Positions 7,930 to 29,493 of a stretch of DNA of 64,000 bases are shown piece after piece (position 1 is the first letter of the stretch; each line of letters opens with the position of its first letter). The stretch spans positions 9,481 to 73,480 of the forward strand of contig DASSJM010000017.1 in assembly GCA_035691205.1 (NCBI GenBank). The letters are read 5' to 3'. Origin of the DNA: Actinomycetota bacterium. Its GTDB lineage: Bacteria; Actinomycetota; UBA4738; HRBIN12. A program made the translations under genes and the position numbers. Below the pieces are notes generated by a model, which made no database searches, was not told where the DNA came from, and saw nothing but the letters and a program-made list of their open reading frames with translations.

Positions 7930-8964
7930 TCAGAGGGCGCGGAGGGCGGGAGCGACCTCGGCCGCGAACAGCGAGGTGGCACGGGCGGCGGTCGCCAGGT
8001 CCATCCCCGGGTAGTGCAGCCGGACGACCAGGTGGAGCTCGTCGCGATCCTCGTTCCGGGTCACCAAGGGGCCGAGCGCCGCGACCACTTCCTCGGGGGG
8101 CCCGGCGACGGTCCAGCGGCGCGCCTCCTCCTCCGCCAGCGTCGGGGCGAGCGCGTCGTGCTCCGGCGTGTCGTGGCCCGCGTCCCAGGCCGTGTACGCC
8201 CCGAGCTGCTGGGTCAGACCCTCCCGGAGCAGCTTCCAGTGGTCGCCCTCCGTCCATGGGAACGCGTTCTGCGTGAGCGCGACCGCGAGCGTCCGGGGAT
8301 CGCGCCCAGCGCTCCTCGCGCCCTCGTCCAGGACCGAGAGGGCGTGCCGGAGGTCATCGGGCTCCGTCGCGTCGGTGATGTACCCGTCGGCCAGGCGGCC
8401 GGCCCGCCGGAGCCCGCGATCGTCGTAGCCCCCCAGGAAGATCCTCGGGCCGCCCGGCCGCGCCGGGGTCGGGGTCACGCGCACGCGATCGAAGCGCATC
8501 GTGCGGCCCTCGAACGAGAACCGGCGGCCGGTCCACGCGCGTCGGAGCACCTCGATCGTGTCCGTCGTGCGCCGGGCGCGCTCGCGCATCGAGGCGCCGA
8601 ACATCCGGAACTCCTCCTCGCGCCATCCGAGTCCCAGCCCGAGGATCAGGCGGCCGTTCGAGAGCTGGTCCACGACCGCCGCGTCCTCGGCGAGGCGGAG
8701 CGGGTCGTGCAGCGGCGTGAGCAGGATGCCGGTGCCGAGCTCGATCCGCTCGGTCACGGCCGCGAAGGCCGCGAGCATCGGGAGCAGGGAGGGCAGGTAG
8801 CCGTCGGACGAGCCGTGATGCTCGCTCACCCAGGCCGAGTCGAACCCGAGCGACTCGGCCAGCCGTACCAGCTCGAGCGTCTCGCCGTACTCCTGCGCGA
8901 GCGTCCGGCTCGAGCCCGCGGGGATCTGGCCCGTGAACAGCCCGATGCCGATCCGGAGCGTCAT
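7930..8964 (-). CDS. LLM-class (luciferase-like) F420-dependent oxidoreductase
   Basis: Start MTLRIGIGLFTGQIP at ATG 8964. LLM motifs AESLGFDSAWVSEHH and NGRLILGLGLGW. The ORF-track 92-aa N-terminal extension was rejected. Confidence 0.85.
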   Translation of the reverse strand: MTLRIGIGLFTGQIPAGSSRTLAQEYGETLELVRLAESLGFDSAWVSEHHGSSDGYLPSLLPMLAAFAAVTERIELGTGILLTPLHDPLRLAEDAAVVDQLSNGRLILGLGLGWREEEFRMFGASMRERARRTTDTIEVLRRAWTGRRFSFEGRTMRFDRVRVTPTPARPGGPRIFLGGYDDRGLRRAGRLADGYITDATEPDDLRHALSVLDEGARSAGRDPRTLAVALTQNAFPWTEGDHWKLLREGLTQQLGAYTAWDAGHDTPEHDALAPTLAEEEARRWTVAGPPEEVVAALGPLVTRNEDRDELHLVVRLHYPGMDLATAARATSLFAAEVAPALRAL

Positions 8965-9024
8965 CGCAGCGAAACCTACACGGCGCGCGAGGCATCCCGC
9001 GCGTCGGCGCGAGAAGATGCGCGC

Positions 9025-9396
9025 GTGCGGATCCGGATCGACCCCTCCTCGCGCGAGCCGGCCTCGACGCAGATGGCCGGGGCGATCCGCGCCGCGGTCG
9101 AGCGCGGCACCCTGAAGCCGGCCGAGCGCCTCCCGCCGGTGCGTGAGCTCGCAGCTGAGCTCGGGCTGGCCCCCAACACGGTCGCGAAGGCGTATCGGGT
9201 CCTGGAGTCCGAGGGGCTGCTCGAGGGCCGGGGTCGCCACGGCACCTTCGTCGCCGAGCGCCTGCCGGGCCGCGTCCCGCGGGCCGAGAGCCGGCTGGAC
9301 GAGGCCGCGGACGCGTTCGTCCGCCGTTCCCGCCAGCTCGGGTTCGGTGCGGCCGGTGCGCGGGATGCCCTCGAGCGGGCGCTGCGGCGGCGCTGA
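9025..9396 (+). CDS. GntR family (YtrA-like, short) transcriptional regulator
   Basis: VRIRIDPSSREPASTQMAGAIRAAVERGTLKPAERLPPVRELAAELGLAPNTVAKAYRVLESEGLLEGRGRHGTFVAE is a winged-HTH GntR signature. GTG start 9025. Divergent from the LLM gene, 60-bp spacer. Confidence 0.75.
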   Translation: MRIRIDPSSREPASTQMAGAIRAAVERGTLKPAERLPPVRELAAELGLAPNTVAKAYRVLESEGLLEGRGRHGTFVAERLPGRVPRAESRLDEAADAFVRRSRQLGFGAAGARDALERALRRR

Positions 9397-9400
9397 CCGG

Positions 9401-10162
9401 CTAGCCGACCGCGAGCAGGGCGGCCATCACGGCGAACCCGCCCGCGATGCCGAAGAACTGCACGACGCCGACGCGGATGTCGGATCCCTTGTGGAGCTCG
9501 GGGATCAGGTCGGCCCCGGCGATGTAGATGAACGCGCCGGCCGAGATCGCGAGCAGGGGCCGCTCGATCCCGCCGAGCGCGCCGTCCAGCAGGAGCGCGA
9601 TCGTCGCCCCGAGGACCGCCGTCATCGCGGAGGCGACGTTGTAGACGAGCGCCCGCTTGGGCGCGAGCCCCGCGTGGACCAGCACGCCGAGGTCGCCCAT
9701 CTCCTGGGGGATCTCGTGCAGCGCCACGGCGATCGTCGTGGCGATGCCGAGCGACGGGCTCACCAGGAACGAGCCGGCGATGATCGCGCCGTCCACGAAG
9801 TTGTGCACCCCGTCGCCGACCAGGTTCGTGAGCACCACCGGCTGCACGTGGTGGTGCTCGGGGGCGTTCAGCTGGTGATGGAGGTGGATGAACTTCTCGA
9901 GCACGTAGAGGAACAGGATCGACAGCGCCATCACCCAGGACAGCTCGACCGTGATGCCCCCGCTCTCGGCGAGCTCGGGCAGGAGGTGGAACAGCGTGTC
10001 GCCGAGGAGGGCGCCGACCGCGAAGCTCACCAGGATCGGAACGATCCTGCGGAGCAGCCCTTCTTGGACGACCAGAGCCACGATGCCCACGAACGCGATC
10101 GCGCTCACCGCGAGGACGGCGAGGATCGTCGCGCCCCAGACCGATGCGGAGGCGGCCAGCAC
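9401..10162 (-). CDS. ZIP family metal (zinc) transporter (ZupT-like)
   Basis: 253 aa, about 8 TM. His-rich loop HLHHQLNAPEHHHVQ. HNFVDGAIIAGSF and HEIPQEMGD are ZIP signature motifs. Confidence 0.9.
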   Translation of the reverse strand: MLAASASVWGATILAVLAVSAIAFVGIVALVVQEGLLRRIVPILVSFAVGALLGDTLFHLLPELAESGGITVELSWVMALSILFLYVLEKFIHLHHQLNAPEHHHVQPVVLTNLVGDGVHNFVDGAIIAGSFLVSPSLGIATTIAVALHEIPQEMGDLGVLVHAGLAPKRALVYNVASAMTAVLGATIALLLDGALGGIERPLLAISAGAFIYIAGADLIPELHKGSDIRVGVVQFFGIAGGFAVMAALLAVG

Positions 10163-10197
10163 GGGCCGAGGCTACACGACCGCTCCCTGCGTCCCGG

Positions 10198-10959
10198 TCA
10201 AGGCGTCAGGTACGGGCGGTCCGGGCGGGCGACCTCGACGACCTGCTGCGCGTCCACGATGACCTCGCGCCCGAGCGGGAAGACCGAGCCGGTGACCTCC
10301 ACCCAGTCGTCGGCCTCGAACTCGCCCGGCCGGACGTTCACCACCCGGACCTGCGCGACCGTCGCATCCGCGGCGCAGCAGGACACGACGTAGCGGGTGA
10401 GCAGGATCTCGTCCGCGGGGGTGTCGTCGCGCCGGACCACGAAGCCCACGAACGTGACCGTCTCGCCGGCCCTCGCCGCAAGCGCCCGCTCCCCCTCCGG
10501 CGTGGTCTGCGCCGCGGCCACGTCGACCAGCGTGAGCTCGCCCTCGCCGATCTCGGTCGCCGAGGCGGCGAACCCCGCACCGGAGAACCCCGAGCGCTTC
10601 CCGGCGGAGAACGTGCCCAGGGTCGCCGGCGGCGCCGCGAGCACCAGGACCACCGGAACCACCATCAGGGCCATGATCCACGCCTCGCGGGCCCGCAGCG
10701 GCTCGGGCGCGGTGGTCCGAGCCGAGACGATCCGACCGATCGTCGACGCCGTGAGCAGGACGGCCGCCACCGGGACCACCCAGTCGGTCCGCGTCGACAG
10801 GTACAGCGCATCGCGCCCGGTGAGCCACAGGAACCAGAACAGGAAGGCCCACGCGCCGAGGACCGCCGCGCCCGCCACCCGGGCCGGGCTCCACCTGCGG
10901 GGCCGGCCCACCTCGGCGAGCCCGCGCGCCGTTCGCCGGGCCATGACGGCGTCGCTCAT
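10198..10959 (-). CDS. TIGR03943/DUF1980 family protein, partner subunit of a two-component membrane permease
   Basis: Start MSDAVMARR at ATG 10959, ATGA-overlapping the upstream permease stop. N-terminal TM helices. C-terminal Cys pair RYVVSCCAADA typical of this family. The rest of the 866-aa ORF-track entry is a shadow. Confidence 0.8.
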   Translation of the reverse strand: MSDAVMARRTARGLAEVGRPRRWSPARVAGAAVLGAWAFLFWFLWLTGRDALYLSTRTDWVVPVAAVLLTASTIGRIVSARTTAPEPLRAREAWIMALMVVPVVLVLAAPPATLGTFSAGKRSGFSGAGFAASATEIGEGELTLVDVAAAQTTPEGERALAARAGETVTFVGFVVRRDDTPADEILLTRYVVSCCAADATVAQVRVVNVRPGEFEADDWVEVTGSVFPLGREVIVDAQQVVEVARPDRPYLTP

Positions 10960-11960
10960 CCGAACACCACCCCGATCCACAGCGCGCCGACGAGCGTGGC
11001 GGCCGCCGCGGTGAGGACCACGATGCGGACGAACCCGCGCCGGAACGTCCCCGCGTACAGCGCGAGCAGCTTGGCGTCGACCATCGGCCCGAAGACCAGG
11101 AACCCGAGCTGCGCCGAGACGCCGAACGGCGCGAACGAGGCCGCGACGAACGCGTCGGACTCCGAGCAGAGCGAGAGGGCTGCGGCGAGGGCCATCATCG
11201 CGACGACCGACAGGATCGGGAGGTCGGCGACGCTCGAGAGCCACGAGGCGGGCAGGAACGTCTGGATCGCGGCGGCGATCGTCGCGCCCAGCAGCAGGTA
11301 GCGGCCCATGAACAGGAAGTCGTTGCCCAGGTGCACGAAGAACCGGCGCCACCTGGCCTCGGGGCGGCCGAGCTCGAGCAGGTGCTCGTGCGACTCCTCC
11401 GGGTTCGGCTTGAGGAGCTCCTCGGTGGTCCGCGAGCCGAGCACCCACCCCACCGCGATCGCGACGAGGACCCCGAGCGCGAAGCGCCCGCCGACCACGG
11501 TCCACATCGTTGCGCGTCCTCGGAACGCGACGAACGTCGATGCGATCACGACCGGGTTGATCACGGGCGCCGCGAGCATGAAGGTCACGGCGGCCGACGG
11601 CATGAGCCCTCGCTGCATCAGCCGGCGTGCCACCGGCACCGAGCCGCACTCGCAGATCGGGAACGCGAGGCCGGCGAGCGCGGCCGCGGGGAGCTGGAGC
11701 GGGCGCGGGAGGCGCCCGAGACGCTCGAGCGTCCCGATCGGCACGAAGACCTCGACGAGCGCGGCGGCGAGCGCGCCGAGCATCACGAAGGGGAGCGCCT
11801 GGATCAGCAGCGACCCGAAGATCACGAAGAAGGTCCGGACCCAGTCGACGCGGCCGGGGTCGAGCAGGCGAAGGACGAGGGCGGCCGCGATCAGCATCCC
11901 CGCAACGGCGAGCGCGGTTCGAGCGGTGGCGGTCCGGTCGTGCCCGGGCGCGATCTCCAT
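10956..11960 (-). CDS. DUF318/YraQ-like permease (two-component membrane permease subunit)
   Basis: 334 aa multi-TM. Conserved ICECGSVP motif. Confidence 0.85.
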   Translation of the reverse strand: MEIAPGHDRTATARTALAVAGMLIAAALVLRLLDPGRVDWVRTFFVIFGSLLIQALPFVMLGALAAALVEVFVPIGTLERLGRLPRPLQLPAAALAGLAFPICECGSVPVARRLMQRGLMPSAAVTFMLAAPVINPVVIASTFVAFRGRATMWTVVGGRFALGVLVAIAVGWVLGSRTTEELLKPNPEESHEHLLELGRPEARWRRFFVHLGNDFLFMGRYLLLGATIAAAIQTFLPASWLSSVADLPILSVVAMMALAAALSLCSESDAFVAASFAPFGVSAQLGFLVFGPMVDAKLLALYAGTFRRGFVRIVVLTAAAATLVGALWIGVVFG

Positions 11961-13292
11961 CTAGCAGTACCTCGCGAACGAGACGGCGAAGCCCTGGAAG
12001 GCGTCGGCCACCATCCTCCCACCCTCGGGATCCTCGGCCGCCAGGAGCGCGTCCACCGCGGCCTGCCCCGTGACCTGTTCCGCTCGGAGCACGTCCTGGT
12101 CGAGGAAGAGCCCGCCCGGGACCACCGCCTCGACCGCGGGAGCCGCTCCCGGGATCGAGGCCTCGACGGCGTCCACGGCGAACGCATCCGGCACCGCGGT
12201 CCTCCCGCGCTCCCAGGTGCCGGTGCCGGCAACCACCACGAGCGTCGCATCGCCCGTCGCGGCCTGCGCCTCGGTCACGATGCGGCGGGTGAGCCGGTCC
12301 ATGGCTCGGATGCCGCCGTCGAGCACCACCCCGAGGACGTCCGGCACGTCGTCGGCCCCGTACCCCGTCGACAGGTGCACCTCCACGGCGAGGGGGGCGG
12401 CCGCGGCGTCGCCGATCACCGTGTCCACGGGGTCCTGGTCCGGGTACCAGCCGCCGCCGACCAGGCCGCGGTCGCGTGGCGCGGTCTCGACGAGTCCCAC
12501 CAGCGTCCGAGGGTGGGCCCGTTCCAGGTCGTCGGCGAGCGACGCGATCACCGGGACGGGGGAGCCCTCGGCGAAGGCCTCGGCGACGCGCCCCTCGTCG
12601 CTGCGGACGAAGGAGCCCGTGATGCCGTGCTGGGAGGGGAGGCCGCCCGTGCCGATCGTCGTGAGCGCCGCCGTGGGGTCCAGCGGCAGGGATCCGACCT
12701 CGGCCTGCAGGGTTCCCGCCCCCCGTTCCAGCAGTGAGGCGAGGAAGGCCCACGCGCCGGGGCGGGCCTCGAGCTCGGCGGAGCCTGCGCCCTTCCACGC
12801 GATCAGCAGGATCAGCCGCGGCGGACGACCCGATGCCGAGGCGACGCCGGGGACGGCGGTGCCCGAGCGAACGTCGGGGAAGGGGCGTTGGAACCCGAGC
12901 GCGTCGCTCACGGTCGGGGCGACGCGGTCGAGGGTGACCCCGTCGGAGATCGGCGTGCCCGAGGCGATCCCCGCGCCGACGAACACCAGCGGGACCCGGT
13001 CGTCCGCGGCCGTGCCCACCGACGGCCAGGGGAGGCGAAGCTCGTCCACCTGCGTGTACACGGGCGTGCTCGCGCCGACTGCGAGGACGTCGGGGGAGCG
13101 CCCCTCCCGGTAGCCGTTCGCGATGGCCGTCCGCAGCGTCTCGGGGAGCGGGCAGAAGGGCACGCGGGCTGCGCTCGGCTCGGCCTCACATGACCGCCCC
13201 ACGCAGAGCACCTGGAGGATGCCGGCGGGGATCCCGATCGCGGCGAGCGCGACGAGGAGCACGAGGAGCCGACGACCGGTCACCGACCTCAC
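11961..13292 (-). CDS. Signal-anchored extracytoplasmic protein, divergent alkaline-phosphatase-superfamily-like paralog of the three downstream lipoproteins
   Basis: N-terminal MRSVTGRRLLVLLVALAAIGIPAGIL. Shares the TIGTGGLPSQHGITG block (TIGTGxxPxxHGI) with the NPP-type lipoproteins. Other catalytic blocks are not recognisable. Confidence 0.65.
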   Translation of the reverse strand: MRSVTGRRLLVLLVALAAIGIPAGILQVLCVGRSCEAEPSAARVPFCPLPETLRTAIANGYREGRSPDVLAVGASTPVYTQVDELRLPWPSVGTAADDRVPLVFVGAGIASGTPISDGVTLDRVAPTVSDALGFQRPFPDVRSGTAVPGVASASGRPPRLILLIAWKGAGSAELEARPGAWAFLASLLERGAGTLQAEVGSLPLDPTAALTTIGTGGLPSQHGITGSFVRSDEGRVAEAFAEGSPVPVIASLADDLERAHPRTLVGLVETAPRDRGLVGGGWYPDQDPVDTVIGDAAAAPLAVEVHLSTGYGADDVPDVLGVVLDGGIRAMDRLTRRIVTEAQAATGDATLVVVAGTGTWERGRTAVPDAFAVDAVEASIPGAAPAVEAVVPGGLFLDQDVLRAEQVTGQAAVDALLAAEDPEGGRMVADAFQGFAVSFARYC

Positions 13293-13355
13293 GCTACCGC
13301 GCGCGGATCGGTGGGTTGTCGTTCACGGCGACGGCGTGGTTGCTTATCCGGGTCC

Positions 13356-15071
13356 ATGTCCCCCCGACGCTGGTTCGCGCTGCTCGCCGTCCTGCTCGTG
13401 CTGGGCGCAGCATGCACCGACGGAGGCTCGAGCGACGTCGCGTCGGGCCCGTCCCCGACCGGGAGGGAGACGGGGACCGCCGCCACGACCTCCGAGCCCT
13501 CGGAGGCAGCCGAGCCGGTCGCCGAGGGCGCGATGGCCGACCTCGCCTGCTCGTTGCCTCACGAGTGGCTCCTGAGGACCTGGCGCGGGAACCGCGACGA
13601 TCGCAGCGCCGAGCTGCAGATCCTGCCGATCGAGCCGAACTTCGTGGGCTCGGGGCTCCCGCACGTGGGGCCCTGGGACTACGCGCAGGACATCCCGATG
13701 TTCTGGTACGGGCCCGGCCACATCGCGCCCGCCGGCGTCGTGAACCGGCCGGTCACCCTCGCCGGCGTCGCCCCGACGCAGGCCGAGCTCCTGGGCTTCT
13801 CCTTCCGCACCCGGGACGGCACCCCGATGCGCGAGGCCGTGGCCGGGAACGCGACCCCGCCCCGGCTCGTCGTGACGATGATCTGGGACGCGGCCGGCCG
13901 CAACGTGCTCGATCGGTGGCCCGACGACTGGCCGTACCTCGCATCGCTGATCGAGAGCGGGGCCTGGTACGAGCGCGCGACGGTGGGCACGAGCCCGACG
14001 AGCACCGCGCAGACGCACGCGACGATCGGCACCGGCACGTTCCCCGACGACCACGGCATCGTGGCGCACCGGATGCGCATCGGCGAGGTGCTGTCCACGC
14101 CGTGGGCCCAGGGCCCCGCGTACCTGATCGACCCGACGCTGGCCGATCTGTACGACGTGGCCCACGGCAACGAGCCGGTGGTCGGCGAGCTGGGGACCGT
14201 GAGTATCCACCTCGGGATGCTCGGTCACGGCTCGATGTGGGGCGGGGGCGACGAGGACATCGCGGTGATCCGCGAGAAGGTCGGGGCCGAGACGCTCGGC
14301 GAGGAGGGGTTCGAGTGGAACCTCACCCCGCTGCTCCAGCCCTACTACCGGTTCCCGGACTACATCAACGAGGTGGGCGGGTTCGAGGAGGACGTGCGGG
14401 AGGTCGACGCAGCCGACGGGCAGCTGGACGGGAAGTGGCGCGAGAACGACATCGAGGCGCTGTTGCAGGGGTTCGACACGCCGGCGCGGATCCCGTACCA
14501 GACGAGGGTGCTGAAGGAGATGATCTCGCGCGAGGGCTTCGGCGCGGACGACGTCCCCGACCTGTTGTTCGTGAACTACAAGATGATCGACTACATCAGC
14601 CACGTGTGGACCGTGAACAGCCCCGAGATGCAGGACGCCGTGCGGGCCCAGGACGAGGCGCTCGAGGACCTGGTCACGTTCCTGGACCGGGAGGTCGGGG
14701 AGGGCGAGTGGGTGTTCGCGCTCACCGCCGATCACGGCTCGATCCCCGACCCCGACCTGACCGGCGCGTTCCAGATCTCGGCCACCCCGATCGTGAACGG
14801 CATCAACGCGACCTTCGACACCGACGGGGATGGCGCCAAGCTGGTAGAGCTGGTCCAGCCGACGCAGATCTTCGTGAACGAGCGCGAGCTCCGGCAGGAC
14901 GGCCACACGCTCGAGGAGCTCGCCGACTGGATCATGGGGTTGACGAAGGCGGACACGGCTCAGCCGGGCGTCGTCGTCCCGGCCGAGGAGGCCGACGACC
15001 TCGTGTTCCAGGCGGCCTTCCCCTCGGCGATCATGAACGACCTCGCATGCCTGCCGGAGGCACGGGGGTGA
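13356..15071 (+). CDS. Alkaline-phosphatase-superfamily lipoprotein, nucleotide pyrophosphatase/phosphodiesterase-like (paralog 1)
   Basis: Lipobox LLVLGAAC. LVVTMIWDAAG. ATVGTSPTSTAQTHATIGTGTFPDDHGIVAH (NPP catalytic-Thr and metal-site blocks). ALTADHGS. C-terminal LACLPEARG. Start at internal ATG 13356. Confidence 0.85.
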   Translation: MSPRRWFALLAVLLVLGAACTDGGSSDVASGPSPTGRETGTAATTSEPSEAAEPVAEGAMADLACSLPHEWLLRTWRGNRDDRSAELQILPIEPNFVGSGLPHVGPWDYAQDIPMFWYGPGHIAPAGVVNRPVTLAGVAPTQAELLGFSFRTRDGTPMREAVAGNATPPRLVVTMIWDAAGRNVLDRWPDDWPYLASLIESGAWYERATVGTSPTSTAQTHATIGTGTFPDDHGIVAHRMRIGEVLSTPWAQGPAYLIDPTLADLYDVAHGNEPVVGELGTVSIHLGMLGHGSMWGGGDEDIAVIREKVGAETLGEEGFEWNLTPLLQPYYRFPDYINEVGGFEEDVREVDAADGQLDGKWRENDIEALLQGFDTPARIPYQTRVLKEMISREGFGADDVPDLLFVNYKMIDYISHVWTVNSPEMQDAVRAQDEALEDLVTFLDREVGEGEWVFALTADHGSIPDPDLTGAFQISATPIVNGINATFDTDGDGAKLVELVQPTQIFVNERELRQDGHTLEELADWIMGLTKADTAQPGVVVPAEEADDLVFQAAFPSAIMNDLACLPEARG

Positions 15072-16759
15072 GGTTGGCGGCGCCGCTGCTGGCGCTCGGT
15101 CTGCTCGCCGCCGCCTGCACCTCCGATGCCACGGAATCACCGTCGGCGACGGGGGACGCGGTCGCGACGGGCTCGACGGGCCCGACGGGTGGAGGGGAGA
15201 TCGCCCCGCCGGCCCCCGGGGAGCTCGCCGACGCGGCGTGCGCGATCCCCCACGAGCAGCTCCTCCGCGTCTGGCGTGGGACCGATCCCGAGCGCTCGGG
15301 CCAGATCGTGTTCGTCCCGGCCGAGCCGAACTTCGTGGGCACCAACTTCCCGCATTCGGGGCCGTGGGACTACCTTCAGGACGTGCCGCTGTTCTGGTAC
15401 GGCCCGGGCGTCGTCCCCGCGCTCGGTCGCGTAGACACCCCCGCGACGATCGCGGACATCGCTCCGACGCAGGCGCGGCTGCTGGACTTCGACTTCGAGG
15501 CACCCGACGGTCGGGCGCTGGACGAGATCCCGCCCCCGAAGACGCCCCCCCGTCTCATCGTCACGCTGGTGTGGGACGCGGGCGGCATCGGTGTGCTCGA
15601 CGCGTTCCCCGACGACTGGCCGGTGCTCGGCTCCCTGATCGAGGACGGCGTCTGGTACGAGGACGCGAGCGTCGGCTCGAGCCCGTCGATCACGCCGGCG
15701 ACGCACGCCACGATCGGCGCGGGAGCTTTCCCGCTGCACACGGGGCAGACCGACGCGGAGTTCCGGATCGGCGACGAGCTGGTCCGCGCCGGCGCGCTCG
15801 GGCCGGTGCTCATGATGGAGCCGACGCTCGGCGATCTGTACGACCGCGCGATGGACAACGAGCCCCTCGTCGGCGCCCTCGCGAGCGTTACGTGGCACCT
15901 GAACATGGCGAGCCACGGGGGGCTGTGGGGCGGCGGCGACAAGGACATCGCGGTGCTGCGCGTCCCAGCGGAGGCCGACAACGAGGGCGCCGAGGGCACC
16001 GTCTGGAACCTCCAGGGCCGGTACCTGCCGTTCTACGAGTTCCCCGAGTACGTCAACGACCTGCCGCCGCTGTCCTCGTACACGGAGGAGGTCGACCGGG
16101 AGGACGGCGCGCTCGACGGCCGCTGGCGGGACAACTCGATCGAGCAGTACGAGGAGGGCTGGGCTACGCCGGCCCGCATCCCGTACCAGGGCCGGATGGT
16201 CGAGGAGGTGATCGCCCGAGAGGGGTTCGGCGACGACGACGTGCCGGACCTGCTGTTCGTGAACTTCAAGGCGATCGACCACGTGAGCCACATCTGGAGC
16301 GTGAACAGCCCCGAGATGGCGGACACCCTCCGTTGGCAGGACCGCGACCTCGAGAGTTTCGTGGGGTTCCTCGATCGCGAGGTCGGGCGCGGTCGATGGG
16401 TGTTGGTCCTGACCGCCGACCACGGGGCGCAGTACGACCCGGCCGTCTCCGGCGCCTTCCAGGTGACCCCCCGTGAGCTCGAGGACGACCTGAACGCCGC
16501 GTTCCCCTCGGAGACCGGCGGGTCGGTCTTCCTCGCCGTGCGCACGAGCCAGATCTACGTGAACGAGGACACGATGCGCGCGAGCGGGTACTCGCTGGAG
16601 CAGATCGCGCGGTTCGTCCTCGGGTACACGAAGGGGCAGGGCCATCCCGAGGGCCCCGAGGCCGTCCCCGGGGAGGAGCGCGACGACCGCGTGTTCGCCG
16701 CCGCGCTCCCGATCCGCCAGCTGGACCGCCTGGAGTGCCTCCCGGAGGCTCGCGGATGA
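15047..16759 (+). CDS. Alkaline-phosphatase-superfamily lipoprotein (paralog 2)
   Basis: Lipobox LLAAAC. LIVTLVWDAGG. VGSSPSITPATHATIGAGAFPLHTGQ. LTADHGAQ. C-terminal LECLPEARG. Start is ATG 15047 or GTG 15068; the GTG overlaps the stop of paralog 1 (GTGA). Confidence 0.85.
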   Translation: MPAGGTGVRLAAPLLALGLLAAACTSDATESPSATGDAVATGSTGPTGGGEIAPPAPGELADAACAIPHEQLLRVWRGTDPERSGQIVFVPAEPNFVGTNFPHSGPWDYLQDVPLFWYGPGVVPALGRVDTPATIADIAPTQARLLDFDFEAPDGRALDEIPPPKTPPRLIVTLVWDAGGIGVLDAFPDDWPVLGSLIEDGVWYEDASVGSSPSITPATHATIGAGAFPLHTGQTDAEFRIGDELVRAGALGPVLMMEPTLGDLYDRAMDNEPLVGALASVTWHLNMASHGGLWGGGDKDIAVLRVPAEADNEGAEGTVWNLQGRYLPFYEFPEYVNDLPPLSSYTEEVDREDGALDGRWRDNSIEQYEEGWATPARIPYQGRMVEEVIAREGFGDDDVPDLLFVNFKAIDHVSHIWSVNSPEMADTLRWQDRDLESFVGFLDREVGRGRWVLVLTADHGAQYDPAVSGAFQVTPRELEDDLNAAFPSETGGSVFLAVRTSQIYVNEDTMRASGYSLEQIARFVLGYTKGQGHPEGPEAVPGEERDDRVFAAALPIRQLDRLECLPEARG

Positions 16760-18417
16760 GTCGGCGCCTGGCCGCCGCGCTGCTCGCGCTCGGTCTGCTG
16801 GGGGCGTCCTGCATCGCCCCGGACGCCGAGCAGGGGACGGCCGGCGGGGTCACGGGCGACCGGGCGTCGCTGAAGCGGTTGATCCGTCGTGCGTGCGCGG
16901 AGGTGCCGCACGACGCGCTGCTGCGCACGTGGCGGGGCACGCGCCTGGACCGTAGCGGCGACATCCAGATCATCCCCTTCGAGCCCGACTTCGTGAACGG
17001 CGGGCTCACCCACGCCACGCCGTTCGACCACACGCAGGAGGTGCCGCTCCTGCTGTTCGGGTCCGGGATCCGCCCCGGCGTCTACCCGGAGCCGGTCACG
17101 CTGGCGGACGTCGCGCCGACGCTCGGCGCGGTGCTCGACTTCCCGTTCGAGACGCCGGACGGTCACGCGCAGCTACAGGCCTTGTTGCCGGAGGACCGGC
17201 GCGAGCCTCCGCGACTGGTGGTCACGCTGGTCTGGGATTCGGCGGGCGACAACGTGCTGGAGCGGTGGCCCGAGGCCTGGCCGACCCTGCGGGCGATGGC
17301 CGAGGAGGGAGCGTGGTTCACCGACGCGCAGGTCGGCGCGTCGCCCTCGAACACGCCGACCGGCCATGCCACGATCGGGACGGGCAGGTTCCCCAATCAC
17401 AACGGGTTCGTCGACGAGTACATCCGGGTGAACGGGATGCTCCAGAAGCCCAACGAGAACGGGCCGGGGTTCCTGCTCGACCCCACCCTCGCCGACCTGT
17501 ACGACCGCGCGATGGGCAACGAGCCGAAGGTGGCAGCGATCGCCACGCTCGCGGCTCACGTCATGATGATGGGCCACGGCTCGCAGTGGGTCGGCGGCGA
17601 CCGAGACATCGCGGTCACCCGCGAGAACGAGTCCGGTCCCACGGCCGGCGCCGAGAGCACCTCGTGGAACCTCACCAGCGACATGTCGTCCTTCTACGTC
17701 CTGCCCGCGTACGCGAACGAGCTCGCGCCACTGGAGGACTACCTGGACGAGGTCGACCGCGCGGACGGCGCGCGGGACGGGATGTGGCGCGAGCACGCGT
17801 TCGCGCAGTACGCGGAGGGGTTCGACACACCGGCCAGGACGCCGTACCAGCAAGCGCTCGTCGAGGAGGTGATGCGGCGCGAGGAGCTCGGCGCCGACCG
17901 GGTTCCGGACCTCCTGTTCGTGAACTACAAGGCGATCGACACGATCGGGCACCTGTTCAGCGCCGACGGCATCGAGATGTCCGACGCGGTCCGCACGCAG
18001 GACGACGCCCTCGCCTCGTTCGTTGCGTTCCTGGATGAGACGGTCGGCCGCGGCCGGTGGACGATGGCCGTCGTGGCCGACCACGGCACCCAGGACGACC
18101 CCCGGGTCTCGGGCGCGTTCTCGATCGACATCCGCAAGCTCGAGGAGGGGCTCGCCGCCCGGTTCGACGACGACGGCGACGACGCCGTGCTGGTCAAGAA
18201 GGTGCGGCCCACCCAGATCTGGCTGAACCACGACGAGCTCGAGGACAACGGCCTGAAGCTCGCGGACATCACCGGCTGGCTCTTCCGGCTCAGCCAGGCG
18301 GAGGTCGTGAAGCCGGGGCGCACGCCGCCCGAGCCCCAGGCGCCGGTGTTCGCGGGCGTCCTGCCGTCTCGTATCCTTTCCGGACTCCCGTGCCTGCCCG
18401 AGGCCAGCGCGGGCTGA
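16756..18417 (+). CDS. Alkaline-phosphatase-superfamily lipoprotein (paralog 3)
   Basis: ATG 16756 overlaps the stop of paralog 2 (ATGA). Lipobox LLGASC. LVVTLVWDSAG. VGASPSNTPTGHATIGTGRFPNHNGF. VVADHGTQ. C-terminal LPCLPEASAG. Confidence 0.85.
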   Translation: MSRRLAAALLALGLLGASCIAPDAEQGTAGGVTGDRASLKRLIRRACAEVPHDALLRTWRGTRLDRSGDIQIIPFEPDFVNGGLTHATPFDHTQEVPLLLFGSGIRPGVYPEPVTLADVAPTLGAVLDFPFETPDGHAQLQALLPEDRREPPRLVVTLVWDSAGDNVLERWPEAWPTLRAMAEEGAWFTDAQVGASPSNTPTGHATIGTGRFPNHNGFVDEYIRVNGMLQKPNENGPGFLLDPTLADLYDRAMGNEPKVAAIATLAAHVMMMGHGSQWVGGDRDIAVTRENESGPTAGAESTSWNLTSDMSSFYVLPAYANELAPLEDYLDEVDRADGARDGMWREHAFAQYAEGFDTPARTPYQQALVEEVMRREELGADRVPDLLFVNYKAIDTIGHLFSADGIEMSDAVRTQDDALASFVAFLDETVGRGRWTMAVVADHGTQDDPRVSGAFSIDIRKLEEGLAARFDDDGDDAVLVKKVRPTQIWLNHDELEDNGLKLADITGWLFRLSQAEVVKPGRTPPEPQAPVFAGVLPSRILSGLPCLPEASAG

Positions 18418-18440: not shown

Positions 18441-21400
18441 ATGGCGCTCACGAAGGATCGTCCCGGTCAGGTCGTCGACGTGCCCGAGCCGGGCAGGCGC
18501 GGCCGGCCGTCCCACCTGCTGGTCCTGTTCATCGCGATCGGGCTCCTGCTGCTGGCGTTCGGCTGGACGTTCCTGCAGGACCCGTCGATCAGCGCGCCGA
18601 CCCGAGACCCGGCCTGGTACACGTGGCGCTCGAACCTGCTGATGAACGACGACCCCGGGCTCGTGGCCGGGGACTGGGGTCCGTTCCACATGTTCGGCGG
18701 CGGCTACCGGGTCGCGGTGCCGCTGTACGGCTCGATCCTGCAGCGGGTCGCGGGGATCGACCTGTACACGTTCAGCGCGTTCATGATGATCGGCCTCCCG
18801 GTGCTGAGCGGCCTGGCCCTCGGCGCGTTCTCCTGGCGCAGGCATCGAGATCCGCTCCTGTTCCTCCTGGTGATGCTCTCGACGGCGGCGCTGTTCATGA
18901 CCACGCCGTACGTCGGGTACCTGGACAACATCACCGTCCTGTACTTCCTGTCGCTCACGCTGGCGTTCTTCGAACCCGGGCGAACGTCGTGGGGCTCGCG
19001 CGTCGCGCTGTTCCTGTTGGGGATCGCGGCGGCGTACACGCACCCGACCACGTGCGTGATCTTCGGCATGTCCCTCATGGGCGTGTTCGGCCTGCGACTG
19101 CTCACGAGCCGGTTCCACCTCGGACCGCCGCTCCGGGAGCTCGGGCCGTCGCTGATGTCGGTCGGGTTCGGGATGATCGCTGGTCTGGGGAGCTGGCTCG
19201 TCTCGCCGTGGGGCGTCGCCGGCTCGCTCGCCGACGCCGCCCTCCCGCCGCCCTACACGAAGGAGGTCTTCCTCAAGCGCCTGGACGGCTGGGTCGACTC
19301 CCTGCAGCCGATGATCATCGTGCCGCTCGTGCTGCTCGCGATCGGCTGGACGGTCTACCGCGCCCGCAAGGACCGCAAGCCCTCCGACGGGTTCGCGACG
19401 ATCTCCGCGATGATGCTCCTCCCGTTCCTCGGGGTCTTCGGCTTCGTCGTCGCCACCTACCCGTACTACCGCTTCATGAACGCGACCGTCGGCCTGTTCC
19501 CGCTCGCGGGGCTCGGCGCGTACGTCGCGATCCGGTGGCTGTGGAAACGAGACGGCGCGGCCAAGATCGCCGGCGTGATCGCCTCGCTCGTGATCGTGGC
19601 CTCCTTCGGGTACATCTGGGTGAACGGACGCGAGGCCGCGCAGTGGGCCGACGCGGACAACCAGTGGATCGACCAGCCCACCCGGACCGCGCTCGAGGCG
19701 ACCCGCGCGATCGTCGAGGGCGAGTCCGAGCAGAGCCCGATCGTCTTCGTCGTGAACTACCAGGACGCCTATCAGGCCTACGGCTGGTCGAAGACGTTCA
19801 CCAACGTCTCGCGGACCGGCCTGCCCGGCGACGCCGTGAAGCGCTCGATGACCTACTTCGGGAGCGTCGAGGACTTCGTGGCCGATCGCCCGACCCAGCT
19901 CACCGACGAGACCTACAACAAGATGGCGCGCGGGTTCCATCGCGAGCTCGGCGAGCTGCGGCAGGAGTACACGGGAGCGCCGATCGTGTTCCTCGTCCGC
20001 CAGTTCAACGAGGGCACGGGCAACGAGGAGCTCCTGGACGCCGGGGGTGACGACCTCATCATCCTGGGCGACGACATCGCGGTCGTGACCGGCGAGGGGC
20101 TGACCACCCCTTCGACGGCCTCGCTCGAGGCCGCCCGCGCGGCCGAGGCCGAGGTGGCCGCGTTCTACGCCGACCACCCGGGGATCTTCGGGAACCTCGG
20201 GCACACCCTATGGGTGCTCGTGGCGCTCGGGCTGCTGCTGATCGTGCCGGGCGCGCTGGCGGCGCGGTTCTTCGACCTGGACGACGCGTGGCTGAAGGTC
20301 GCGCTGATCCCGGGGATCTCGATCACCCTGACGGTGCTGTCCGGGATCGCGGTCGTGGCGGTGACCCGAGCGCCGTTCGGCGTCGCGCACGGGTGGGCCT
20401 CGCTCGGGCTGGCCACGGCGGTCGCCGCCGCGCTCCGCTTCGGCTCGGCGCCGATCCTGCGGGTGCTGAACGCGTTCGGCAGGTTCTTCAACAAGATGTT
20501 CTCGGTCTTCTCCAACGCGGACTTCGCGTCGCTGATGGGGGTGCAGTTCCTGGCGATGGCGGCCGACGGCGTGATCCGCGGCTCGATCGCCAAGTCGATC
20601 GCGTTCGGCGGTCAGGAGGGCTTCGACGTCACCACCGTCCCCGACGCGAACTACCTGCTGAAGGTGGTGCTGGCGCTCTACATCCCGTACACGTTCATCA
20701 GCCCGTTCATCGGCGTGTTCATCGACCGGTTCGAGCGGCGTCGCGTGCTCTCGCTCTCCAACGTCGTGACGGCGGTGGTGGTCGCGGTCGTGGCGGCGGG
20801 GGCCCTGATCCCGCTCGGCGACGACACGTCCGAGGGCAAGATCGGCATCACCGCCGCGCTGATCCTCGGCATGCTCGTGATGCAGGCCTGCGTGCGGATC
20901 GTGCTCGCGGTCAAGTCGGCCGCGATGCCCGACGTGCTGGCGGGCAGGGACCTGATGCAGGGCAACGGCCTCTCGCAGGCCGGCGGGGCGCTGTTCCAGG
21001 TCCTGGGCGCCGGGATCGCGTTCGGGTTCGGCGCGGTGCTCCCCGCGTGGCTGGTCGTGGTCGGCGGGGCGGGCGTGCTGATCGCCGCCTCGGTCGTGGC
21101 TCGGCGGATCCGCCGGATGGAGGCCGCCCCCCACGAGATGAGCTTCGGCCAGGAGGCCAAGCGCATCCTGAGCGACATCGTGGCCGGTCTGCGCGAGGTG
21201 AAGGACCGACCGGCGGGCGCGCTGGGCCTGACCTCGTTCCAGATGATCCGGTACCAGTTCTGGGGCTTCACCCTGTTCGTCTTCGGCCTCTACGCGAAGA
21301 ACCTGGTCGAGGGCGGGGAGGCCGACACGATGGCCCTGGGCCTCGTGGGAGGGCTCGGGTTCCTGGGCGGCGCGCTTGGCCTCGTCCTCGCGCAGCGCTG

Positions 21401-21818
21401 GAAGGACACGATCCCGCCGATCCGACTGCTGCTCGGCTCGATGGCGCTCCTGGGCGCCGGCACGGTCGTGTTCGGTTGGTCGATCACGATGGTGGGGTTC
21501 GCGGCCCTGCTGTTCGTCGGGTTCTTCGCCTTCTTCATGGCGAAGATCTCCGCCGACACGATCATGCAGCAGGCCATGCCGGATGATTTCCGAGGACGCG
21601 CGTTCGCGCTGTTCGACATCGCCTACAACCTCGGCTTCATCGTGCCGGCGATCATCCTGTCGTTCGTGTGGGTCGAGAACGATCCCGGCCAGGTGCGGAC
21701 GATCCTGCTCGTGTCCGGGGCGGTGTTCCTGGTGCTCACCGGGTTCGTGTGGCGCTGGTCCAGGTCGATCCGAGGCCAGTTCGCCCCGCAGGACGACCTC
21801 GTGGATGCGGAGGCCTAG
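18441..21818 (+). CDS. Large (1125 aa) polytopic membrane protein: N-terminal multi-TM domain (possibly GT-C-like), a central soluble domain and a C-terminal MFS transporter domain
   Basis: Start MALTKDRPGQ at ATG 18441, after ggggaaagcggagag. About 12 TM helices in the first 450 aa, with an acidic first loop (LLMNDDPGLVAGDWGPFH). The C-terminal about 520 aa has 12 predicted TM helices and the MFS signature FIDRFERRRVL. Confidence 0.85.
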   Translation: MALTKDRPGQVVDVPEPGRRGRPSHLLVLFIAIGLLLLAFGWTFLQDPSISAPTRDPAWYTWRSNLLMNDDPGLVAGDWGPFHMFGGGYRVAVPLYGSILQRVAGIDLYTFSAFMMIGLPVLSGLALGAFSWRRHRDPLLFLLVMLSTAALFMTTPYVGYLDNITVLYFLSLTLAFFEPGRTSWGSRVALFLLGIAAAYTHPTTCVIFGMSLMGVFGLRLLTSRFHLGPPLRELGPSLMSVGFGMIAGLGSWLVSPWGVAGSLADAALPPPYTKEVFLKRLDGWVDSLQPMIIVPLVLLAIGWTVYRARKDRKPSDGFATISAMMLLPFLGVFGFVVATYPYYRFMNATVGLFPLAGLGAYVAIRWLWKRDGAAKIAGVIASLVIVASFGYIWVNGREAAQWADADNQWIDQPTRTALEATRAIVEGESEQSPIVFVVNYQDAYQAYGWSKTFTNVSRTGLPGDAVKRSMTYFGSVEDFVADRPTQLTDETYNKMARGFHRELGELRQEYTGAPIVFLVRQFNEGTGNEELLDAGGDDLIILGDDIAVVTGEGLTTPSTASLEAARAAEAEVAAFYADHPGIFGNLGHTLWVLVALGLLLIVPGALAARFFDLDDAWLKVALIPGISITLTVLSGIAVVAVTRAPFGVAHGWASLGLATAVAAALRFGSAPILRVLNAFGRFFNKMFSVFSNADFASLMGVQFLAMAADGVIRGSIAKSIAFGGQEGFDVTTVPDANYLLKVVLALYIPYTFISPFIGVFIDRFERRRVLSLSNVVTAVVVAVVAAGALIPLGDDTSEGKIGITAALILGMLVMQACVRIVLAVKSAAMPDVLAGRDLMQGNGLSQAGGALFQVLGAGIAFGFGAVLPAWLVVVGGAGVLIAASVVARRIRRMEAAPHEMSFGQEAKRILSDIVAGLREVKDRPAGALGLTSFQMIRYQFWGFTLFVFGLYAKNLVEGGEADTMALGLVGGLGFLGGALGLVLAQRWKDTIPPIRLLLGSMALLGAGTVVFGWSITMVGFAALLFVGFFAFFMAKISADTIMQQAMPDDFRGRAFALFDIAYNLGFIVPAIILSFVWVENDPGQVRTILLVSGAVFLVLTGFVWRWSRSIRGQFAPQDDLVDAEA

Positions 21819-22352
21819 GTGGAGCGAACGCCATCACCCGATCCGGTGGCCGAGGCGGCTGCCTACCAGGCGCACCTGCTCGGCCTCCTCGGCGAGGACG
21901 ACCCGGCCGAGGTGCAGGCCACCACCCCCCAGTCGTGGGGGGCGCTCGTAGCGGAGGCGGCTGCCCGGGTGGCCGAACGTCCCGAGCCCGGCGAGTGGTC
22001 GGTGCTCGAGTGCCTGGGCCACGCCTTCGACTCCGAGTGGGTGGTCGGCGCCCGCTACCGGTGGATCGTCGCGCACGACGAGCCGCCGCTCGTCGGCTAC
22101 GACCAAGACCTGTGGGTCGACCGCCTCCAGCACGGACTCGACGACCCCGTGATCCTGCTCGAGACCTTCGCCGCGCTGCGGAGCGCCAACCTCGCCATGT
22201 GGGCGCGCTCGACCGAGGAGGATCGCGCCCGGATCGGCATGCACACCGAGCGTGGGCCCGAGAGCTTCGACCTCACCTTCCGCCTGCAGGCCGGCCACGA
22301 CCGGTTCCACCTCGATCAGGCCCGCCGCGCCCTCGCGGCGGTCGCGGGCTAG
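21819..22352 (+). CDS. DinB-family protein (DinB_2/MDMPI_N-like metal-dependent four-helix bundle)
   Basis: GTG start. WSVLECLGHAFDSEW motif. 177 aa. Confidence 0.8.
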   Translation: MERTPSPDPVAEAAAYQAHLLGLLGEDDPAEVQATTPQSWGALVAEAAARVAERPEPGEWSVLECLGHAFDSEWVVGARYRWIVAHDEPPLVGYDQDLWVDRLQHGLDDPVILLETFAALRSANLAMWARSTEEDRARIGMHTERGPESFDLTFRLQAGHDRFHLDQARRALAAVAG

Positions 22353-29433: not shown

Positions 29434-29493
29434 CGCGGCCGAGGCTAGCACCCGTGCACGACCCGACCGTGGAGCGGGTACCGTGGGTACGCC

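Follow-up and report, generated by a model that had tools for sequence, protein, structure and literature searches.

The alkaline phosphatase (AP) superfamily is a main model for the evolution of active sites and for catalytic promiscuity, and one of its members, PafA, is in use for large-scale mutational enzymology. In PafA-type phosphomonoesterases, Lys162 and Arg164 contact the phosphate, and an Asn, Asn100 in PafA and Asn111 in Xac NPP, contacts the phosphoryl group. Natural circular permutants occur elsewhere, among DNA methyltransferases, swaposins and some glycosyl hydrolases, and are usually explained by tandem duplication with subsequent loss from either end, and no description of a circular permutation in the AP superfamily was found in the literature searched. 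Here we describe three tandem genes, W1, W2 and W3, in a window of 64,000 nucleotides (the whole stretch of DNA that was analysed). We consider it probable that they are old paralogues encoding surface-anchored, permuted, disulfide-closed two-metal phosphoesterases that are catalytically competent, co-transcribed and translationally coupled, a reading built on the established fold family, permuted order, intact catalytic residues, Cys covariation, operon geometry and conserved synteny.

The sequence-only reading of this DNA had described three tandem genes with start/stop overlaps of 4 nt and a lipobox Cys in each, and both descriptions held (Table 1). The stop of W1 and the start of W2 share GTGA at 15068-15071, the stop of W2 and the start of W3 share ATGA at 16756-16759, and the Gram-positive lipobox pattern is matched by W1, W2 and W3 at Cys20, Cys17 and Cys19 and not by W4, a fourth paralogue next to the array. 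W2 is absent from the list of open reading frames as a frame of its own because it is enclosed in a long frame without stops (13190-16759), which is an artefact of high GC content. A GGAGG stands 7 nt upstream of the GTG with which W2 begins, the junction of W2 and W3 (16744-16759) is built in the same way, and the NTGA overlap is kept at most W1-to-W2 junctions in relatives. The lipobox predicts that all three products are lipoproteins; Cys20 of W1 is nearly invariant among homologues, and the AF2 model of W1 has a low-confidence tether after the lipobox (residues 17-51; pLDDT <50).

Table 1. Features of the W1-W3 locus (positions in the window).
Feature	Position	Strand	Remarks
ZIP-family (ZupT-like) metal importer	9401-10171	-	Last gene of the divergent unit; PF02535
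TIGR03943 (DUF1980) putative permease subunit	10198-10959	-	Cys-Cys motif; start overlaps ArsP_1 stop
ArsP_1 permease	10956-11960	-	Directly downstream of W4; PF03773
W4, fourth paralogue	11961-13292	-	443 aa; divergent from the array; same permuted order; lacks the cap insert
Promoter-like motif	13314-13347	+	GGTTGTCGTTC, ~12 nt, GGTTGCTTAT; ends 8 nt before the W1 ATG
W1	13356-15071	+	571 aa, ATG start; permuted PafA/PhoK-like protein of the alkaline phosphatase superfamily, predicted lipoprotein
Lipobox Cys20 codon of W1	13413-13415	+	Lipobox pattern match
Transplanted N-terminal module of W1	13533-13850	+	~Residues 60-165; opens with Cys65; contains metal ligand His103
C-L-P-E-A-R-G of W1	15048-15068	+	Contains Cys565, inferred disulfide partner of Cys65
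Coupling cassette W1 to W2	15056-15071	+	GGAGG (15056-15060) within Pro-Glu-Ala codons
W2	15068-16759	+	563 aa, GTG start; paralogue 2
Lipobox Cys17 codon of W2	15116-15118	+	Lipobox pattern match
Transplanted N-terminal module of W2	~15224-15541	+	Equivalent of W1 module
C-terminal CLPEARG of W2	16736-16756	+	Equivalent of W1 tail
W3	16756-18417	+	553 aa, ATG start; paralogue 3
Lipobox Cys19 codon of W3	16810-16812	+	Lipobox pattern match
Transplanted N-terminal module of W3	~16879-17205	+	Equivalent of W1 module
C-terminal CLPEASAG of W3	18391-18414	+	Equivalent of W1 tail
1125-aa membrane protein	18441-21818	+	23 nt downstream of W3; 700-aa domain fused to MFS_1

The region upstream of W1 carries no Shine-Dalgarno sequence, and the W1 transcript is therefore probably leaderless. 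More than 30 related loci have the motif GGTTGTCGTTC/GGTTGCTTAT at an equal spacing from the start codon, and it may act as the promoter; it resembles a promoter rather than the known PHO boxes. This lineage has no site model of the Pho regulator. Neither a Pho box nor a Zur box was found in the promoter region of the array, and no pst or pho genes are among the annotated genes of the window. We propose that W1-W3 and the gene of the 1125-aa membrane/MFS protein would share one transcript with a probably leaderless start at 13356, and that W2 and W3 would be translated by coupling, through the overlapping stop and start codons and the Shine-Dalgarno sequence inside the Pro-Glu-Ala codons.

All three proteins scored above the gathering cutoff (23 bits) that defines assignment to PF01663, the type I phosphodiesterase/nucleotide pyrophosphatase family, with 91.9 bits for W1, 64.1 for W2 and 90.2 for W3, and the catalytic blocks to which the sequence-only reading had pointed were found, as VGxSPxxTxxxHATIGxG and (T/V)ADHG. 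The Pfam search thus confirmed membership of the AP superfamily, but the closer label that had been given, NPP-type, needs revision, as the nearest solved relatives are the phosphomonoesterases PafA and PhoK/SPAP and not the classical NPPs. The best sequence matches of the W1-W3 family were PafA (family profile, E=7.9e-38) and PhoK, and the AF2 model of W1 (pLDDT 83, pTM 0.84) had PafA (5tj3) and SPAP (3q3q) as its top structural matches in Foldseek. Alignment with PafA gave T217 of W1 as the nucleophile and D178, D412, H416, D459, H460 and H103 as the metal ligands (D178/T217/D412/H416/D459/H460/H103, corresponding to PafA D38/T79/D305/H309/D352/H353/H486). These seven positions are intact in W1, W2 and W3, and are invariant in nearly all full-length representatives; the exceptions, P0164, P0167 and P0170 together with P0154 and P0160, in which Ser takes the place of Thr217, seem to be degenerate members as well. 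All three proteins should accordingly be regarded as predicted competent enzymes, and they may cleave phosphate monoesters or diesters on the outer side of the membrane. While the metal-ligand positions do not vary, the position equivalent to PafA Asn100 holds H in W1, A in W2 and E in W3, Asn being found there only in more distant permuted relatives, and this non-conserved position could mean lower or different activity. In the profile search, the cap region of W1 (238-383) did not align with residues 89-265 of the PafA chain, the insert that holds Lys162 and Arg164, so specificity for mono- or diesters is not transferable from PafA.

Profile alignment further showed that the predicted products of W1-W3 have the PafA/PhoK-type alkaline phosphatase fold in circularly permuted form, a feature that, like the pairing of Cys by covariation, the sequence-only reading had overlooked. 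The evidence came from three stretches that match the PafA chain out of order: query residues 168-237 align with 17-88, 384-533 with 266-419, and 66-162 with 435-533. An independent profile, built from the N-terminal module alone (A4; the N-terminal ~100 residues), matched the end of the PafA chain (435-533 of 549; E=6.4e-15) and of PhoK (452-548 of 565; E=3.6e-9), and it also matched the equivalent parts of sulfatases. In the module, His103 of W1 aligned with His475 of the PafA chain, which is PafA His486, the last metal-binding His. The collinear order of canonical NPPs and PafA is thus not kept in W1-W3, where the module with the last His lies at the N-terminus, and their order is a permutation of that found in all solved relatives. 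The PF01663 match ends at profile position 222-296 of 342 and never reaches the last 46 positions; there is no second copy of the module at the C-terminus, where just ~30 residues remain after the final aligned one. Foldseek gave a TM-score of only ~0.5 between the W1 model and PafA, a value that is expected, though no proof of permutation, since the aligner depends on sequence order.

In the proposed architecture, a lipid anchor and a disordered tether would be followed by the beta-strand/helix module with the last metal-binding His, then by the usual core with the Asp and the Thr nucleophile, a cap specific to the family, and the D-x3-H and D-H ligand blocks, and the chain would end where canonical enzymes run on into the last-His module. 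Because domain annotation leaves residues 21-165 unassigned, the last metal ligand seems to be missing, and in permuted members this seemingly absent ligand could lead to wrong calls of inactivity. Permuted members make up at least several hundred clusters at 50% identity and are spread over Actinomycetota and one or more further phyla. A natural permutant so widespread offers a ready test of how much chain connectivity weighs in the assembly of a two-metal site.

The array lies in a conserved cluster, with W4, ArsP_1, TIGR03943 and zinc importers on one side and the 1125-aa membrane/MFS protein on the other; neither the cluster nor W4 had been noted by the sequence-only reading. All seven catalytic positions are replaced in W4, which is for this reason a predicted pseudoenzyme, and wherever a related locus offers sufficient flanking sequence, W4 almost always adjoins the array. 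The ArsP_1 permease scored 176.6 bits against PF03773 (cutoff 32.3) and is weakly similar to SO_0444 Cu/Zn efflux transporters, and its neighbour scored 111.7 bits against TIGR03943 (cutoff 88.8) and also matched DUF1980_C; with both models above cutoff and the genes adjacent, the two correspond to the two-gene TIGR03943/ArsP_1 permease. The ZIP-family importer, a weak match to the ZupT model, is replaced by znuABC-zur in many relatives. The 1125-aa protein, which always adjoins the array in the close clade, has MFS_1 at residues 742-1068, preceded by a 700-aa domain with ~10 TM segments and a soluble part of ~195 aa according to hydropathy; residues 1-700 had no match in Pfam, NCBIfam or PDB. 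The locus thus holds a pair of active enzyme and pseudoenzyme within one conserved cluster with metal transporters, and this pair and the family-less 700-aa membrane domain are targets in the search for new biology of the envelope or of metal handling in the uncultured Actinomycetota that abound in soil.

Such a neighbourhood brings up the question of whether the cluster is a zinc-economy unit, in which ArsP_1/TIGR03943 would load the phosphatases with zinc and W4 would serve as chaperone or adaptor, or which would respond as a whole to zinc limitation. In Bacillus subtilis, the AP-superfamily exoenzyme LtaS receives its metal through TerC proteins, which offers a parallel. The constant company of W4, ArsP_1 and TIGR03943 in nearly all close relatives, with a ZIP importer next to them or znuABC-zur flanking, is consistent with this reading, as is the part that an ArsP/DUF318 relative plays in the zinc resistance of Shewanella (bioRxiv 10.1101/072470). 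We nevertheless hold it to be rather unlikely: the Zur box ATGRGAATCRTTCTCAT, which stands ahead of znuA in some 25 related loci, is absent from the whole window and from the W4/W1 intergenic regions of relatives, apart from one match with four mismatches at locus L022, and more distant permuted homologues do without the ArsP_1/TIGR03943/zinc-importer context. An even more speculative reading, to which we give little weight, makes the cluster a monoderm assembly system for exported metalloenzymes. If this were true, the ArsP_1/TIGR03943 pair would supply zinc on the outer side of the membrane, the dead, disulfide-stapled W4 would be a chaperone or docking partner with one to four permuted phosphatases as its clients, and the phosphatases and the giant membrane/MFS protein would jointly act on an envelope phosphate ester that is either polymeric or linked to a lipid.

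The tails of the proteins read ACLPEARG in W1, ECLPEARG in W2 and PCLPEASAG in W3. Conservation of this motif beyond the genome was a point on which the sequence-only reading had staked its case beforehand, and C[LIVM]PE does occur in 136 of 141 close homologues, the motif being present in most orthologues across 76 related loci. Since GGAGG lies within CCG-GAG-GCx, exactly at the spacing described above, and any Glu-Ala codons yield at least GAGG, CLPEA might be kept mainly as a nucleotide signal, with the Pro-Glu-Ala codons forming the Shine-Dalgarno sequence of the next overlapping paralogue. We regard this as very improbable, for CLPEA is no less conserved in W3 and in genomes with a single copy, whose following gene has a spacer and a Shine-Dalgarno sequence of its own, most W1 orthologues with overlapping starts lack an exact GGAGG (45 without, 11 with), and distant homologues retain specifically the Cys, which covaries with the N-terminal Cys.

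This covariation points to a role for the tail in the folded protein. Each of W1, W2 and W3 has exactly three Cys, so that the mature proteins contain none beyond the lipobox and the terminal pair, and among 52 informative representatives at 50% identity, Cys65 and Cys565 are both present in 34, both absent in 18 and never found singly; P0150 appears to have lost both independently. The pair is also present in W4 (Cys47, Cys443). Since the two Cys strictly co-occur and the mature protein has no other, a disulfide between Cys65 and Cys565 in W1, and between their equivalents in W2 and W3, likely staples the new termini, and the Cys of the C-terminal CLPEA would in this way close the cut of the permutation with the opening Cys of the N-terminal module. 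The richness of the cluster in metal-handling genes and a loose likeness of LPEA to sortase-type L-P-x-T/A motifs could instead point to a metal-binding or modification site, or to a sorting or processing signal, with no disulfide. That account has a low probability in our judgement: the motif is the very end of the protein, with no hydrophobic segment or charged tail after it, and so is not a sortase signal, and for two lone Cys of an exported protein, placed at ends that meet in the permuted fold and lost only together, a disulfide is the simplest explanation.

As to the history of the permuted, disulfide-closed enzymes, alignment of W1-W3 gave 48-51% protein identity, bearing out the earlier claim of paralogy, and 66-67% DNA identity (E=4e-124 and 4e-80); the similarity in these sequences is to be read as true paralogy, not chance. 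The array had been explained as a triplication for dosage or for diversification. A recent triplication for dosage it is not: W1-W3 are old orthologous groups, and their copy number ranges from 1 to 4 among related uncultured Actinomycetota. The W3 type stands closest to the gene that the most divergent relatives have as a single copy. Diversification remains plausible: residues conserved within each group lie beside T217, D412/H416 and H103 and in the cap, and such differences around the predicted active site and cap fit different substrates rather than dosage. All homologues are from uncultured organisms. HTGQ in W2 had been taken to mean changed or lost activity through the 'HGI/HNG' block, but alignment with PafA puts the metal ligands elsewhere, and the change is thus no sign of lost activity. 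W2 carries Thr at the His position of the 'HG' motif and Ala where PafA has Asn100, and might on these grounds, perhaps along with others, have become non-catalytic or altered in function. This is hardly probable given that the 'HG' His is not a metal ligand, that the seven catalytic positions are kept in W2 and conserved under purifying selection in 44 W2 orthologues, and that W4 shows what true degeneration looks like at the same locus.

Among described systems, PafA (5tj3; NF042991) shares with W1-W3 the Thr nucleophile and the six metal ligands, and alignment is good over the helical sub-domain that follows the D-H block (W1 384-533 with chain 266-419). However, the chain order of W1-W3 is permuted, the NCBIfam equivalog NF042991 gave only 99.5, 93.2 and 111.3 bits for W1, W2 and W3 against a cutoff of 650, H, A or E stands at the Asn100 position, the Lys162/Arg164 insert is unalignable, and the lipoprotein anchor and terminal Cys pair set W1-W3 apart. 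PhoK/SPAP of Sphingomonas (3q3q, 5xwi) shows the same out-of-order match in three segments, including that of the module profile to its C-terminus, and a Foldseek TM-score of ~0.5, but its order is canonical, its relation to W1-W3 is more remote, and it lacks the terminal Cys pair. The NPPs (Xac NPP 2gsn; ENPP1-7; PF01663) have the bimetallo core and Thr nucleophile in common with W1-W3, whereas their matches are far weaker (profile E=5e-5), their order is canonical, and they lack the large cap and the helical sub-domain. Finally, the natural permutants of other enzyme families resemble W1-W3 in keeping the same fold with the termini moved; in contrast to them, the moved piece here bears a predicted catalytic metal ligand, with a covarying Cys pair at the new ends.

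The three overlapping lipoprotein genes W1, W2 and W3 that the sequence-only reading had placed in a row were read from the sequence at those positions, with stop/start overlaps of GTGA at 15068-15071 (W1/W2) and ATGA at 16756-16759 (W2/W3). W2 has no separate entry in the mechanical ORF list, being enclosed by a stop-free frame of 1189 codons that masks it because of the ~71% G+C content. A lipobox Cys closes each signal peptide, at residue 20 in W1, 17 in W2 and 19 in W3, as had been claimed, and the Pfam model PF01663 was matched far above its cutoff by all three proteins. Protein identity among the three amounts to 48-51% and DNA identity to 66-67% (E=4e-124 and 4e-80); they are old paralogues, and nothing in the sequences points to gene conversion or a recent duplication. 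Twin arginines occur in the signal-peptide n-region of W1 (SPRRWF, 13356-13370) and W3 (SRRLAA, 16756-16770), whereas that of W2 holds only one Arg; whether export runs through Tat or Sec would bear on where metal loading and disulfide formation happen.

Features of the phosphatase array and its neighbourhood (window positions)
Feature	Position	Strand	Remarks
F420-dependent luciferase-like oxidoreductase	7933-8976	-	adjoins the GntR-family regulator
Small GntR-family regulator (Rv1152-like)	9025-9390	+	convergent with the ZIP gene
ArsP_1 permease, TIGR03943/DUF1980 subunit, ZIP importer	9401-11960	-	one unit behind W4
W4, fourth paralogue	11961-13292	-	443 aa; 63 bp upstream of W1, divergent
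W1	13356-15071	+	
W2	15068-16759	+	GTG start
W3	16756-18417	+	
Membrane protein	18441-21818	+	1125 aa; 23 nt past W3; MFS_1 at C-terminus
DinB_2 superfamily gene	21819-22352	+	start adjoins the 1125-aa gene's stop
Very large ORF	27505-30747	-	~1080 aa; beta-helix region and PLDc_N domain

By sequence, the closest solved structures are the alkaline phosphatases PafA (PDB 5tj3) and PhoK/SPAP (PDB 3q3q, 5xwi), and classical NPPs trail far behind. Foldseek with the AF2 model of W1 (pLDDT 83, pTM 0.84) gave the same ranking and confirmed the family, at a TM-score of only ~0.5 because Foldseek aligns sequentially. An offset of +11 converts the chain index to PafA numbering and recovers the published T79, N100, D305/H309 and D352/H353. 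On this scale (W1 residue numbers here and below), D178 corresponds to D38, T217 to T79, D412/H416 to D305/H309, D459/H460 to D352/H353 and H103 to H486, and these seven catalytic positions, and with them the bimetallo site, are intact in W1, W2 and W3. Among 53 full-length cluster representatives (50% identity), nearly all keep the seven positions as well; P0164, P0167 and P0170 deviate, as do P0154 and P0160, which have Ser for Thr217. The position equivalent to PafA Asn100 is His in W1, Ala in W2 and Glu in W3. Since W1-W3 score 93-111 bits with the NCBIfam PafA model against a cutoff of 650, they are relatives of PafA rather than PafA proper. The 'HGI/HNG metal-site block' of the sequence-only reading turned out not to be a metal site, the ligands mapping elsewhere in the PafA alignment; the HTGQ of W2, taken there as a possible sign of changed or lost activity, therefore says nothing on the matter, all seven positions of this paralogue being intact.

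The order of the aligned segments showed that the chain is circularly permuted. In the match of the family profile to PafA (total E=7.9e-38), residues 168-237 align with chain positions 17-88 and residues 384-533 with 266-419, and residues 66-162 align, out of order, with 435-533. As an independent test, a profile built from the N-terminal module only (the region of W1 residues 60-165, 38 diverse members) and searched against PDB sequences matched PafA at 435-533 of 549 (E=6.4e-15), PhoK at 452-548 of 565 (E=3.6e-9) and, in many sulfatases and in LtaS-type enzymes, the equivalent stretches late in the chain as well; single N-modules gave weak matches to the Sulfatase and Metalloenzyme Pfam models. 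Furthermore, the PF01663 match of W1-W3 ends at profile position 222-296 of 342, and only ~30 residues follow the last PafA-aligned position at the C-terminus. On the strength of the out-of-order PafA matches, the N-module profile and the truncated PF01663 match, we conclude from the alignments that the module with the last metal ligand has been relocated from the C-terminus to the N-terminus. Re-joining W1, W3 and W4 in canonical order left the Pfam and NCBIfam scores unchanged, because HMMER sums local stretches whatever their order. An exhaustive homologue search returned 368 clusters at E<=1e-30; the N-terminal His module was present in all full-length clusters inspected, and a Sericytochromatia MAG protein belongs to one of the member clusters. 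The permuted arrangement is thus not peculiar to the source genome. A literature search retrieved no description of a permuted NPP, PafA or AP-superfamily member.

The C-terminal tails read CLPEARG in W1, CLPEARG in W2 and CLPEASAG in W3, and the claim that CLPEA is conserved was borne out, C[LIVM]PE being found within the last 15 residues of 136/141 close homologues and in most orthologues across 76 related loci; in more distant representatives the Cys alone persists. This Cys565 has a partner in Cys65, which opens the N-terminal module in a C-x-L-P motif: both were present in 34 representatives and both absent in 18, no representative was mixed, and in the close relative P0150 Ala occupies the two sites. 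Each of W1, W2 and W3 contains exactly three Cys, namely the lipobox Cys and the equivalents of this pair, and exactly three were counted in 54/59 aligned homologues. Exported proteins are commonly oxidised in Actinobacteria. The permutation created two new chain ends that must adjoin in the fold, and Cys65 and Cys565 sit at these ends, which is why we infer a putative Cys65-Cys565 disulfide that would staple the new termini. Only tentatively can CLPEA be read as a vestigial copy of C-x-LP-H-E from the N-terminus, since its LPEA part is confined to the close clade; both motifs resemble S-I-P-E-P of PafA.

At the DNA level, the Pro-Glu-Ala codons (CCG GAG GCx) of W1 and W2 hold GGAGG exactly 7 nt before the next start, and by this position ahead of an overlapping start the tail also provides the ribosome-binding site of the cistron that follows (W1 to W2 and W2 to W3). 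This role was rejected as the main cause of CLPEA conservation, as W3 and single-copy genes keep CLPEA although the gene behind them lies beyond a spacer and is served by a site of its own, and as exact GGAGG is missing from most orthologues. The NTGA overlap is kept at most W1-to-W2 junctions of relatives. Upstream of W1 (13314-13347) lies a motif of GGTTGYCGTTC, ~12 nt and GTGTTTCGTAT, whose second part reads GGTTGCTTAT in the window; its conservation extends to >30 loci, and 7-8 nt separate its end from the start codon. The conserved motif, with no Shine-Dalgarno sequence present, supports the W1 start at 13356 and suggests that W1, the first cistron, is carried on a leaderless transcript. 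The 11-mer GGTTGTCGTTC has 3 matches in the window (<=1 mismatch) versus ~1 expected; as the rest of the window shows no enrichment of it, it is predicted to be a local promoter element rather than a regulon motif. A scan for promoter consensus and terminators inside the operon gave nothing meaningful, with no terminator-like site between W1, W2, W3 and the next gene. In the W4/W1 intergenic region of related locus L002 (8190-8245), 3-4 tandem copies of a ~14-nt unit (GGTGCCTGGCCAGA) were observed, and none in the window.

The 73 related loci in GTDB genomes all come from MAGs, labelled Actinomycetota or Actinomycetes nearly throughout, apart from a few other or unspecific labels. The most divergent genomes have one copy, which is W3-like, and others have two (W1+W2 or W1+W3), three or four. 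Gene order is kept while copy number varies; W1, W2 and W3 therefore represent orthologous groups older than these lineages. Group-specific conserved positions lie beside the nucleophile (215-218), D412/H416 (413-417) and H103 (100-107); others coincide with the Asn100 equivalent (238-239) or fall in the cap, a family-specific insert at 238-383. All three groups differ from one another at 16 positions, 8 of which belong to the cap. Dosage and substrate diversification had both been suggested for the triplication. The group-specific pattern fits diversification better than dosage.

W4 shares the permuted order and lacks the cap insert. All seven catalytic positions are replaced (e.g., Lys for D178, Pro for T217 and Gly-Thr for D459-H460), consistently in orthologues down to 44% identity; W4 is a conserved pseudoenzyme. 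Four of its Cys are invariant (30, 35, 47 and C-terminal 443); the terminal pair is retained among them, and the chain ends on Cys443. W4 adjoins the array in almost every close relative; its AF2 model (pLDDT 58) was too poor for use. In the metal-gene unit behind W4, the ArsP_1 and TIGR03943 genes overlap in their start/stop codons, and the TIGR03943/DUF1980 subunit scores above the model cutoff and carries a Cys-Cys motif, SCCAAD. An ArsP/DUF318 relative contributes to zinc resistance in Shewanella (bioRxiv 10.1101/072470). A literature search on TIGR03943 or DUF1980 function gave nothing relevant and no account of what the permease pair does. In many relatives znuABC-zur, of which the window has none, replaces the ZIP gene at its place. 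A clear palindromic Zur-box candidate, ATGRGAATCRTTCTCAT, derived from znuA upstream regions of relatives, precedes znuABC-zur in related locus L003 (2057-2073) and ~25 other related loci. It is absent from the W4/W1 promoter region and from the whole window; Zur control of the W4/W1 promoter was thus rejected, and the zinc link of the cluster is reduced to gene neighbourhood only.

On the other side, every close relative has the 1125-aa protein beside the array. Its residues 1-700 had no sequence match in Pfam, NCBIfam or PDB, even with a 15-sequence profile; their hydropathy indicates ~10 TM segments plus a ~195-aa soluble part, which gives the impression of a GT-C-like topology. The first loop is strongly conserved (TRDPAWYTWR), and L003 encodes the two halves in separate genes. 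The DinB_2 gene may belong to the same operon, since its start abuts the preceding stop and, in related locus L001, the two genes overlap by 1 nt. In some relatives (L003, 13424-16496; L030, ~14554-16173) the array is separated from the membrane protein by a GT87 glycosyltransferase and a further, divergent Phosphodiest/Metalloenzyme protein (638 aa, ~33% identity), which hints at envelope glycoconjugate chemistry. The position of the ~1080-aa ORF is conserved in L001 and L002, beside cupredoxin genes. More distant permuted homologues occur in other gene contexts.

Taken together, W1-W3 would be lipid-tethered to the outer face of the membrane through a disordered linker of ~30-40 residues (AF2 pLDDT of W1 is <50 for residues 17-51). 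The N-terminal module would insert into the core, where His103 would complete metal site 1, the Cys65-Cys565 disulfide would lock the fold, and phosphate mono- or diesters would be hydrolysed via the predicted Thr217 nucleophile. Embedded in an uncharacterised conserved cluster, W1-W3 constitute a circularly permuted, probably disulfide-stapled branch, expanded in tandem, of the PafA/NPP-type phosphatases.
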